From NCBI RefSeq assembly GCF_003334255.1, contig NZ_QOWU01000218.1: a stretch of 593 nt of DNA; one strand, given 5' to 3'. This document shows positions 1 through 560 of the stretch, piece by piece. The stretch is from Escherichia coli. GTDB lineage: Bacteria > Pseudomonadota > Gammaproteobacteria > Enterobacterales > Enterobacteriaceae. The translations under genes were made by a program, and so were the position numbers. Below the pieces are notes generated by a model. It saw nothing but the letters and a program-made list of their open reading frames with translations. It was not told the DNA's origin and made no database searches. Every line of letters begins with the position of its first letter. Position 1 is the first letter of the stretch.

Positions 1-4
1 GCAT
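1..4 (-). CDS. Rz1: Start of embedded Rz1-type outer-membrane lipoprotein spanin (o-spanin); only the ATG at 4..2 and one further base are inside the window
   Basis: ATG at 4..2 on the minus strand is in the +1 frame of Rz, 220 nt downstream of the Rz ATG and inside the Rz codons for ELADA. This is the same offset and motif at which lambda Rz1 initiates. A GAGGG ribosome-binding site lies 9 nt upstream (18..14), and the +1 frame has a TAG stop at 10..8 immediately before it. The lipoprotein signal and lipobox cannot be seen because they lie beyond the window. Confidence 0.5.
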
Positions 5-224
5 CGGCTAATTCCCTCGAGTATTTTGCATCGAGCGCAGCAACATCGCGCTGGCGCACCTGCATATCAGTAATGGTGGCGTTTGCCAGCTCCAGCTCTC
101 TGGCTTTTTTATCGCGCTGCGCTTTGTAGGTGATGGCGTTATCGCGGTAATGGTCTGTTGCCAGCCACAGCGCACCACAGCCACCCGCCAGGACAATAAT
201 CACCACACACAGAACACGGCTCAT
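1..224 (-). CDS. Rz: Rz-type inner-membrane spanin (i-spanin), N-terminal 74 codons; partial, the 3' end of the gene runs past position 1
   Basis: Reverse-complement translation from ATG at 224..222 gives [74 protein letters not shown] with no stop to the window edge. It has an N-terminal hydrophobic signal-anchor segment followed by a charged segment that matches, from memory, the phage lambda Rz N-terminal region ([51 protein letters not shown]) nearly residue for residue. Not in the supplied ORF track because it is open-ended. Confidence 0.9.
14..18 (-). promoter_or_regulatory. Shine-Dalgarno ribosome-binding site (GAGGG) for the embedded Rz1 start
   Basis: Plus-strand ccctc at 14..18 is GAGGG on the minus strand, 9 nt upstream of ATG 4..2. 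From memory, lambda has AAGGAG at the equivalent position upstream of Rz1. Confidence 0.4.
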
Positions 225-231
225 CTCTCTT

Positions 232-363
232 TCACCCCACCAGTCCCGATAACGTCAGGACTCGCCAGGCGGTGGAAAAGAAAATGGCAACCAGCATTAG
301 TGAAAATGAAATGCCGACAATTACACAGAGGATCTTCGCCAGCGTTATGAGTTTGTCTGACAT
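232..363 (-). CDS. Hypothetical 43-aa small membrane protein (one predicted transmembrane helix), translationally coupled to Rz
   Basis: ATG at 363..361 is preceded by AAGGGAGG (378..371) with a 7-nt spacer. Translation is [43 protein letters not shown], then TGA at 234..232, which is 7 nt before the Rz ATG. A hydrophobic stretch of about 22 residues ([24 protein letters not shown]) fits a single membrane helix. The track's longer version (start 453) begins with GTG directly after a stop, has a Gly/Cys-rich N-terminus and lacks a ribosome-binding site. Confidence 0.5.
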
Positions 364-370
364 GCTTAAT

Positions 371-378
371 CCTCCCTT
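371..378 (-). promoter_or_regulatory. Shine-Dalgarno ribosome-binding site (AAGGGAGG) for the 43-aa ORF; overlaps the TGA stop of the upstream ORF
   Basis: Plus-strand cctccctt at 371..378 is AAGGGAGG on the minus strand, a near-perfect complement to the 16S rRNA 3' end, 7 nt upstream of ATG 363..361. Confidence 0.6.
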
Positions 379-560
379 CACGATTTCAACGCAATGACCA
401 GTTTTGCCAGCCCATACAGCATCGGGGACACAGCAACACCGACCGCCACCCACTTAATGGCAAAAGCCAGTGCTCTGCTGATGTCATCAGTTACAGGCGC
501 TTTCAGTTCAAGGCCATTTTTCATAGTCAACCTCAACAGAATTCGTTTATACTTTTCCAT
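378..560 (-). CDS. Hypothetical small tail-anchored membrane protein (60 aa if ATG 560; 48 aa if ATG 524); 5' end unresolved because the frame is open to the window end at 593
   Basis: Frame translates MEKYKRILLRLTMKNGLELKAPVTDDISRALAFAIKWVAVGVAVSPMLYGLAKLVIALKS, then TGA at 380..378. ATG at 560..558 is preceded by AGGGAG (569..564, short 3-nt spacer); the alternative ATG at 524..522 is preceded by GAGG (534..531, 6-nt spacer). The N-terminal part is charged (K/R/E/D) and the C-terminal 25-30 residues are hydrophobic. The stop abuts the ribosome-binding site of the next ORF. Confidence 0.45.
   Translation of the reverse strand: MEKYKRILLRLTMKNGLELKAPVTDDISRALAFAIKWVAVGVAVSPMLYGLAKLVIALKS

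Follow-up and report, generated by a model that had tools for sequence, protein, structure and literature searches.

The stretch of DNA analysed here, a window of 593 bases from Escherichia coli (contig NZ_QOWU01000218.1), shows the lysis cassette of a lambdoid prophage on its reverse strand. A 100% identical sequence is found in E. coli G1/2 (NZ_CP060083.1, 1483943-1484535) and in Escherichia phage PhiR12_3, and in both records the genes follow each other on the coding strand in the order class II holin, lysozyme R, a 60-aa open reading frame (ORF), a 43-aa ORF, Rz and the terminase genes. The subject of this study is the 43-aa ORF, hereafter orf43, which comprises 43 codons and a TGA stop codon on the minus strand (232..363). 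These boundaries follow from the ORF list, the annotation of the genome by PGAP and of the phage, the match to the family phrog_4906 and the conservation of the frame. That orf43 is a genuine protein-coding gene can be regarded as almost certain. Its existence was already known: PGAP annotates the gene, PHROGs places it in a cluster, and its translation was reported in 2017.

The orf43 product is a hydrophobic peptide with a grand average of hydropathy (GRAVY) of 1.63 and a Kyte-Doolittle maximum of 2.87 across residues 11-29. AlphaFold2, supplied with a family alignment of 22 sequences, predicted one continuous helix from residue 2 to residue 38 with a mean predicted local distance difference test score (pLDDT) of 90.3. 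According to alignments and charge count, codons 1-10 (334..363, minus strand) encode a conserved N-terminus predicted to be cytoplasmic. The hydrophobic transmembrane core is encoded by codons 11-33 (265..333, minus strand), as judged from hydropathy, the AlphaFold2 model and column conservation, and contains the conserved residues C13, G17 and S21 on one face in a small-xxx-small arrangement. Across 38 alleles the residues S2, K4, I6, C13, V14, S19, F20, M23 and W33 are invariant. No allele lacks K4 or K10, and in none of them do the last 11 residues bear more than one charge. Based on this charge distribution and the positive-inside rule an N-in/C-out topology is predicted, with a mostly uncharged periplasmic tail of about 10 residues following W33.

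A Shine-Dalgarno (SD) sequence, AAGGGAGG (371..378, minus strand), is located 7 nt 5' of the start codon ATG 363, and its first A (base 378) is at the same time the last base of the TGA stop codon of the preceding gene orf60. A first-pass annotation of the window, made from its letters without database searches, had described a 43-codon single-pass membrane miniprotein read from ATG 363 to TGA 232 with a near-consensus ribosome-binding site; the product that we obtained is identical, and the hydropathy, the single predicted helix and the spacing of AAGGGAGG agree with this description.

The SD sequence and the ATG recur in three independent contexts upstream of orf43. Behind orf60 the start codon is preceded by AAGGGAGG or AAGAGGA, and behind orfU, another small ORF of the cassette, by AAGGGG. 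In the antirepressor context of phages carrying the Shiga toxin (Stx) genes, the sequence reads GGAGTGGTGGCTA ATG ATA TCR GAT, so that the peptide begins with MISD.... The SD-like motifs in upstream contexts other than that of the window comprise AAGAGGA, AAGGGG and GGAGTGGTGG. In two loci with the antirepressor context an in-frame TAG comes after the more distal ATG, which argues for the proximal ATG as the true start in this context. A longer version of the gene, starting at a GTG and encoding 73 aa (232..453, minus strand), is annotated as 'conserved hypothetical protein' (P0002) in E. coli ED1a. We rejected this extension because of its overlap with orf60 and its disregard of the conserved SD sequence and ATG; the ED1a annotation is probably a start-site mis-annotation.

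Ribosome footprints were reported for a homologue of orf43 in E. coli Sakai. This homologue, XECs191, was listed as a translated novel gene by Hücker et al. 2017 (PMC5597208), where it was classed as 'real' and predicted to be located in the inner membrane. In lysogeny broth (LB) it reached a transcriptome value of 30.0 and a translatome value of 12.6 reads per kilobase per million mapped reads (RPKM), corresponding to a ribosome coverage value (RCV) of 0.43, at a coverage of 0.55 (PMC5597208). XECs191 corresponds to ECs_1966 of the prophage Sp10 and shares its strand with the genes for holin, endolysin and Rz. A second copy of orf43 in Sakai is ECs_5707 in the Stx2 prophage Sp5. The weak signal of footprints and RNA in Sakai without induction could stem either from the repressed prophage or from spontaneous induction in a part of the cells.

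Shuffling of the 129 nt of orf43 left 15% of the sequences without an in-frame stop codon. The mere presence of so long an open frame is therefore not unusual, and the case for orf43 must rest on the comparison with its relatives. Homologues with 63-100% identity are confined to Escherichia and Shigella. An exhaustive search with a profile, covering 1.84 billion representative proteins, yielded 29 clusters, all of them Escherichia-type variants or fragments of the orf43 family, and no distant relatives from which a function could be borrowed. Among the loci collected by protein similarity, orf43 comprises exactly 43 codons in 164 of 165, with 32 DNA alleles encoding 25 protein variants. Since a set collected in this way is biased towards intact frames, IMG/VR was sampled again with an exact 26-nt pattern from the 5' end of Rz. 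An intact 43-codon ORF was present in 98 of the 113 Rz-anchored loci with enough upstream DNA, a frameshifted orf43 in 7, and 8 loci contained no orf43-like DNA within 400 nt of Rz. A 10-nt deletion after codon 27 is common to six of the sampled loci (L175, L176, L196, L200, L243 and L244), in which the TGA of the new frame overlaps the ATG of Rz, and locus L231 carries a 1-nt insertion in codon 5.

The ratio of nonsynonymous to synonymous substitution rates (dN/dS, Nei-Gojobori omega) for the 38 alleles was 0.54 with a 95% confidence interval of 0.38-0.76 from a codon bootstrap; the two frames shifted against it on the sense strand gave 0.87 and 1.07. Rz showed an omega of 0.48 in the same loci. 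Within orf43, codons 1-26, covering the N-terminus and the transmembrane core, exhibited a value of 0.42, and the C-terminal third was the most variable part of the gene (0.65). Thus, both the conservation of the frame in relatives and the synonymous-site pattern, with which the first-pass annotation would have let its reading stand or fall, are present, and translation is indicated by the footprints of the Sakai homologue.

The plus strand contains an antisense ORF of 41 aa (272..397), and it might be asked whether this is the real gene and orf43 its shadow. The antisense frame is free of stop codons in all 38 alleles, and its ratio of nonsynonymous to synonymous polymorphism (pN/pS) is nearly the same as that of the sense frame (0.47 vs 0.44). 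However, the third codon positions of the antisense frame coincide with the sense ones, so that it inherits the same omega, and a stop codon can arise in this frame only where a sense codon has A as its second base, and such codons are rare in a hydrophobic ORF. Scoring of the substitutions with BLOSUM did not discriminate between the two frames either (-0.24 vs -0.32). The antisense ORF lacks a conserved start, the ATG positions differing from allele to allele, and extends into the variable upstream contexts. Moreover, it opposes the direction of the operon, no promoter was predicted for it, and the published ORF supported by footprints lies on the strand of the lysis genes. On the basis of starts, operon direction and published footprints we chose the sense strand; there is practically no chance that the antisense ORF is the real gene. 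The open antisense frame is a by-product of the hydrophobic sense gene, a mirror effect.

orf43 matches phrog_4906 over its entire length (E=2.5e-27; residues 1-43 align with positions 7-49 of the 49-position profile), and so do the divergent homologues P0118 and P0121. Its product is identical to RefSeq WP_001280930.1, for which neither RefSeq nor PHROGs gives a function; public labels are hypothetical, uncharacterized or 'putative membrane protein'. phrog_4906, WP_001280930.1, ECs_5707 and ECs_1966 agree with orf43 in length and in the position between endolysin or antirepressor gene (ant) and Rz; they represent orf43's own family, and no difference from it was found. Searches of Pfam, NCBIfam, PADLOC, PDB sequences and Rfam revealed nothing significant for orf43: the only Pfam match was an insignificant one to DUF3930 (E=0.22), and Rfam did not show a match even at E<=10.

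The exact orf43 sequence is present on 977 contigs, and the gene was found in 1750 of 5426 complete E. coli genomes (about 32%) with up to 11 copies per genome. Furthermore, it occurs in 276 phage records, all belonging to Stx-type or related lambdoid phages, and essentially all sampled lineages of Stx-converting phages carry it. The suspicion of the first-pass annotation that a gene of this size may be unannotated applies to many of the GenBank phage records, which show no feature at this place, but not to the matching RefSeq genome and phage record, in which orf43 is annotated. The first-pass annotation thus described the structure correctly; it missed the prophage lysis cassette, the adjoining Rz and the catalogued status of the gene (WP_001280930.1, phrog_4906, XECs191). 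Taken as it stands, orf43 is an ordinary accessory phage gene, correctly read.

Downstream of orf43, the window contains the 5' part of Rz, the inner membrane component (i-spanin) of the spanin complex, with its first 74 codons (1..224, minus strand), recognised by translation and annotation; the full gene matches the Rz-like spanin family phrog_13 (E=1.5e-75). The orf43 stop codon and the Rz ATG are separated by a 7-nt spacer, AAGAGAG (225..231, minus strand), and this spacer together with the last codons of orf43 forms the ribosome-binding region of Rz. The short distance is widespread, with Rz beginning 2-7 nt downstream of orf43 in 140 of 154 loci, and the junction types include a GTGA overlap of the orf43 stop with the start of a second type of Rz. 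As the SD sequence of orf43 overlaps the stop codon of orf60 and its own stop codon abuts or overlaps the start of Rz, orf43 is produced along with the lysis proteins, and its translation is probably coupled to that of the adjoining genes.

This tight junction raises the question whether the peptide has a function at all. orf43 might merely be a translated leader that brings ribosomes to the Rz start, or a hitch-hiker with Rz. The stop codon at 7 nt from, or overlapping with, the Rz start, the contribution of the last codons to the SD sequence of Rz, the high variability of the C-terminal third and the loci in which orf43 is lost or frameshifted and Rz is kept would all be in line with this. 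In contrast, omega is significantly below 1 and lowest in the N-terminus and transmembrane core, far from the Rz junction, and the length is fixed at 43 codons across the 38 alleles with their invariant residues. In addition, orf43 is intact at a distance of 218 nt from Rz in 46 loci, and likewise in 9 loci in which a DNA methyltransferase gene separates the two, intact copies away from Rz being at distances of 218-940 nt, and a homologue is kept in a cassette without Rz. We therefore consider a functionless peptide improbable.

Upstream of orf43 lies orf60 (378..560, minus strand), a small membrane ORF identified by sequence, annotation and its match to phrog_1115, with a C-terminal transmembrane segment. 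Its start is ambiguous: ATG 560, used by PGAP, gives 60 aa at an SD spacer of 3 nt, and ATG 524, used in the phage record, gives 48 aa with a GAGG better spaced at 6 nt. orf60 is strongly constrained (omega 0.11, 7 alleles) and does not show a Pfam match.

The genes further upstream lie outside the window. The holin is of class II (S21-like) and comprises 71 aa with a dual start, MYQMEK (phrog_20/9876, PF04971). R comprises 177 aa; an N-terminus that is rich in Gly/Ala and weakly hydrophobic (GLSVAVLALIATGASAP) is combined with an E-x8-D-x5-T motif, which indicates an R21-type endolysin of the signal-anchor-release (SAR) class. A class II holin and a SAR endolysin were found in all loci with 2.5 kb of upstream sequence; in a published survey almost all Stx phages possess a SAR endolysin and a pinholin (PMC8136144). 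The late operon contains a strong terminator-like hairpin (AAAACCCCGTTTGTTGGCTGCAAGCGGGGTTTT, 14 pairs; positions 5968-6000 of locus L001) in the stretch that separates the endolysin gene from orf60, a little beyond position 593 and thus outside the window. Such a hairpin would tie the expression of orf60, orf43 and Rz to antitermination by Q. A consensus scan, which is weak evidence by nature, did not reveal a promoter-like site on the coding strand from the holin gene to Rz or on either strand around orf43, and a scan of the cassette found no terminator downstream of orf43.

The gap between R and Rz, in which orf43 is located, is highly mosaic. The upstream neighbour of orf43 is orf60 in 71 loci and an antirepressor gene (two kinds of ant) in 67; in 18 loci the upstream neighbour is R, at a distance exceeding 100 nt, with orfU in the intervening gap. 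Altogether orf43 was found in three or four upstream and at least four downstream contexts. Homology breaks off exactly at the orf43 ATG and just past its stop codon, suggesting that orf43 is a self-contained mosaic unit. Three families of tiny membrane ORFs occur in the gap in several orders and combinations (for instance in L171, L177 and L095, 3130-3250). The first is orf43 itself (phrog_4906). The second (phrog_1115, phrog_4493 and phrog_3246) includes orf60, a remnant of 38 codons from its C-terminus and a paralogue of 28 aa, and the third is orfU (..WKFLLVWSIPFLWVVSQLIVAIKG; phrog_6632). The 38-codon remnant starts at a GTG 2 nt past the orf43 stop codon. The 28-aa paralogue of the orf60 C-terminus, MSAELIRAMAFAIRIVAIAVLVWAIRWW, belongs to phrog_4493/3246. 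The methyltransferases inserted between orf43 and Rz are proteins of 311 aa (L017, 3140-4075) and 255 aa (L095, 3253-4020), both with DPPY motifs, and also occur in L197, L272 and L273. With these insertions, and with the first bases of Rz duplicated there, the orf43-Rz junction is an insertion hot spot for accessory genes.

A divergent homologue of orf43, P0118 (44 aa), was detected in a phiP27-like cassette (L288, 4001-4322). The order of genes in this cassette is Phage_holin_8, holin_3_7, a GH108 endolysin, ANT, orfU, orf44 and a lipoprotein of 51 aa. The lipoprotein, which follows P0118, contains the lipobox LLVGC and belongs to phrog_7528. An Rz-type spanin was not found anywhere in this cassette. 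Because this locus differs in its lysis genes, the constant context of orf43 is the distal end of a lysis cassette and not one particular holin, endolysin or spanin.

This mosaic structure would also fit a gene that is unrelated to lysis. orf43 might be moron-type cargo, an inner-membrane peptide benefiting the lysogen or the infected cell, e.g. by superinfection exclusion at the step of DNA entry or by modulation of a host membrane protein in the manner of AcrZ or MgtS, and it might lie in the R-Rz gap only because this gap tolerates insertions. In accordance with the definition of a moron, orf43 occurs between conserved neighbours in some loci and is missing there in others, the mosaic junctions lying exactly at both of its boundaries. 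The gap also holds antirepressors, methyltransferases and the other families of tiny membrane ORFs, orf43 is non-essential and sometimes frameshifted, in the phiP27-like phages it is associated with an unrelated lysis cassette, and the XECs191 footprints were found in uninduced lysogen cultures. On the other hand, a moron is expected to have its own promoter and terminator. No sigma-70-like promoter was detected on the orf43 strand and no terminator downstream of the gene; the terminator-like hairpin is found on the upstream side of orf60. Because orf43 is an internal gene of the late operon with coupling to the adjoining genes, its expression in lysogens is expected to be low, and spontaneous induction of a subpopulation would produce a footprint signal as low as the one observed. 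Furthermore, there was no match to a PADLOC defence family. Cargo of this kind is a possible explanation, though on balance a rather unlikely one.

We tentatively favour another explanation, to which we give somewhat less than an even chance: orf43 may be a non-essential accessory membrane peptide that tunes the membrane steps of lysis. The gene is part of the Q-dependent late operon in Stx-type lambdoid phages and prophages from E. coli and Shigella; its product, expressed late, would contact another bitopic lysis protein helix to helix inside the inner membrane. Candidate partners are the second transmembrane domain (TMD2) of the pinholin, the SAR domain of R and the membrane anchor of Rz. 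Such a contact might adjust when, or how efficiently, the membrane steps of lysis take place, and the peptide would not be lethal by itself. The conservation of the membrane core with its C13, G17 and S21 face exceeds the need of a generic anchor, which makes a specific helix-helix contact probable, and because of when and where orf43 is made, other bitopic lysis proteins would be the likeliest partners. A role in lysis is supported by the strand and position of orf43 within the series holin, endolysin, orf60, orf43 and Rz, by an omega similar to that of Rz and by the divergent homologue, which again has a distal position in a different lysis cassette.

Several observations weigh against a function in lysis. 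Lambda, phage 21 and P22 are absent from the phage records encoding orf43, so that the gene is dispensable; these phages lyse their hosts without an orf43-like gene. The 7 frameshifted copies among the 113 Rz-anchored loci show that orf43 is dispensable in at least some prophages, too, and 5 loci carry orf60 and orf28 in its place. Since the R-Rz gap also gathers antirepressors and DNA methyltransferases, which are not lysis genes, position alone is weak evidence. With its different holins, GH108 endolysin and lack of Rz, the phiP27-like cassette deprives the orf43 family of a constant lysis partner. The footprint signal of XECs191 in uninduced Sakai was low (translatome RPKM 12.6, RCV 0.43), and dN/dS is blind to the difference between the sense frame and its antisense mirror. 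Searches of the literature by locus tag, peptide sequence and topic did not yield a paper discussing orf43 or a functional study.

The first-pass annotation had named type I toxin-like peptides, very small holin or antiholin components and membrane-protein regulators as proteins of comparable size and shape. As a toxin or holin, orf43 would be a stand-alone membrane-damaging peptide, i.e. a type I toxin-like peptide, a mini-holin or a depolariser that collapses the proton-motive force and in this way helps to trigger the pinholin and to release the SAR endolysin. With its single hydrophobic helix in the inner membrane, orf43 resembles Hok, TisB, Ldr, Ibs and Zor, the type I toxins of about 20-50 aa, and the small-xxx-small face formed by C13, G17 and S21 could support oligomerisation. 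In addition, SAR/pinholin systems are triggered by depolarisation (PMC9239132, PMC8136144). However, a type I toxin gene stands alone, has a promoter of its own and is paired with an antisense RNA that serves as antitoxin. orf43, in contrast, lies tightly packed inside the late operon; neither a free-standing locus architecture nor an own-strand promoter-like site was found, and Rfam revealed no antisense RNA family as a partner. There was no match to the NCBIfam type I toxin models.

Like a holin, orf43 encodes a small transmembrane protein of a lysis cassette, but similarity to the holin families of PHROG and Pfam was not detected, its hydrophobic C-terminus lacks the charged tail typical of holins, and the cassette already contains the dual-start class II holin. 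Up to 11 copies of orf43 are moreover tolerated per genome. Both of these classes are thus disfavoured, and a peptide that damages the membrane by itself appears very improbable.

An antiholin or a regulator of membrane proteins, the remaining suggestions, is a candidate role that fits the position in the cassette. T4 RI, P1 LydB and P2 LysA are examples of antiholins or accessory lysis membrane proteins. They share with orf43 that a small, non-essential membrane protein is encoded in the cassette and co-expressed with the holin, and that it is expected to act through contact between proteins in the membrane. In contrast to these proteins, orf43 is much smaller and consists of one helix with almost no soluble domain, no sequence relationship to them was found, and the holin of this cassette has its own antiholin form resulting from the dual start.

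The releasin gp25 of phage Mu is a further example of a membrane protein that is not a holin and is encoded near genes for a SAR endolysin and a spanin, and thus provides a precedent for an extra membrane factor. gp25 (DUF2730) comprises 99 aa with an N-out/C-in topology and an anionic cytoplasmic domain of 73 aa (PMC9239132). Unlike gp25, orf43 comprises 43 aa, is predicted to be N-in/C-out and shows neither a soluble domain nor a DUF2730 match; besides, Mu does not possess a holin, whereas the cassette studied here does. A releasin of the Mu type was rejected for orf43 because of size, topology and domain.

With i-spanins orf43 shares an N-terminal membrane anchor with a predicted N-in/C-out topology, a likeness that is based on charge distribution only. 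Its gene is located directly upstream of Rz/Rz1, and the phiP27-like homologue lies upstream of the phrog_7528 lipoprotein, a member of the published phiP27 outer membrane spanin (o-spanin) family. Nevertheless, we rejected a spanin identity, as a tail of about 10 residues without a coiled coil, compared to 62 residues in the shortest published pair (PMC6139136), cannot bridge the periplasm and a complete Rz/Rz1 pair follows.

The possible role of orf43 is of interest since in Stx phages the cassette to which it belongs controls host lysis, the exit route of Shiga toxin. If orf43 tunes the timing of lysis, toxin release and phage burst would be affected, and a very small intramembrane regulator would have to be added to the model of pinholin and SAR endolysin. 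If it is only cargo, it would be one more uncharacterised small membrane protein. A more far-reaching idea, which we regard as unlikely, is that orf43, the orf60/orf28 family and orfU together form an undescribed class of intramembrane regulators of pinholin, SAR endolysin and spanin in Stx phages. In that case the membrane ORFs of the R-Rz gap would set the timing of lysis and hence the timing and amount of Shiga toxin release.

A minor observation concerns phiP27 itself (L291, NC_003356.1), in which an orf43 homologue was not found. Its spanin pair was described as the shortest two-component one with 62 residues in total (Kongari et al. 2018, PMC6139136). The published i-spanin ORF, 64 aa in length after correction of a coordinate offset of 76, is initiated at a TTG, carries no annotation in the record and is almost fully overlapped by a more protein-like antisense ORF of 90 aa (2037-2231 and 2021-2293, respectively). 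The published call of the phiP27 i-spanin may be wrong.

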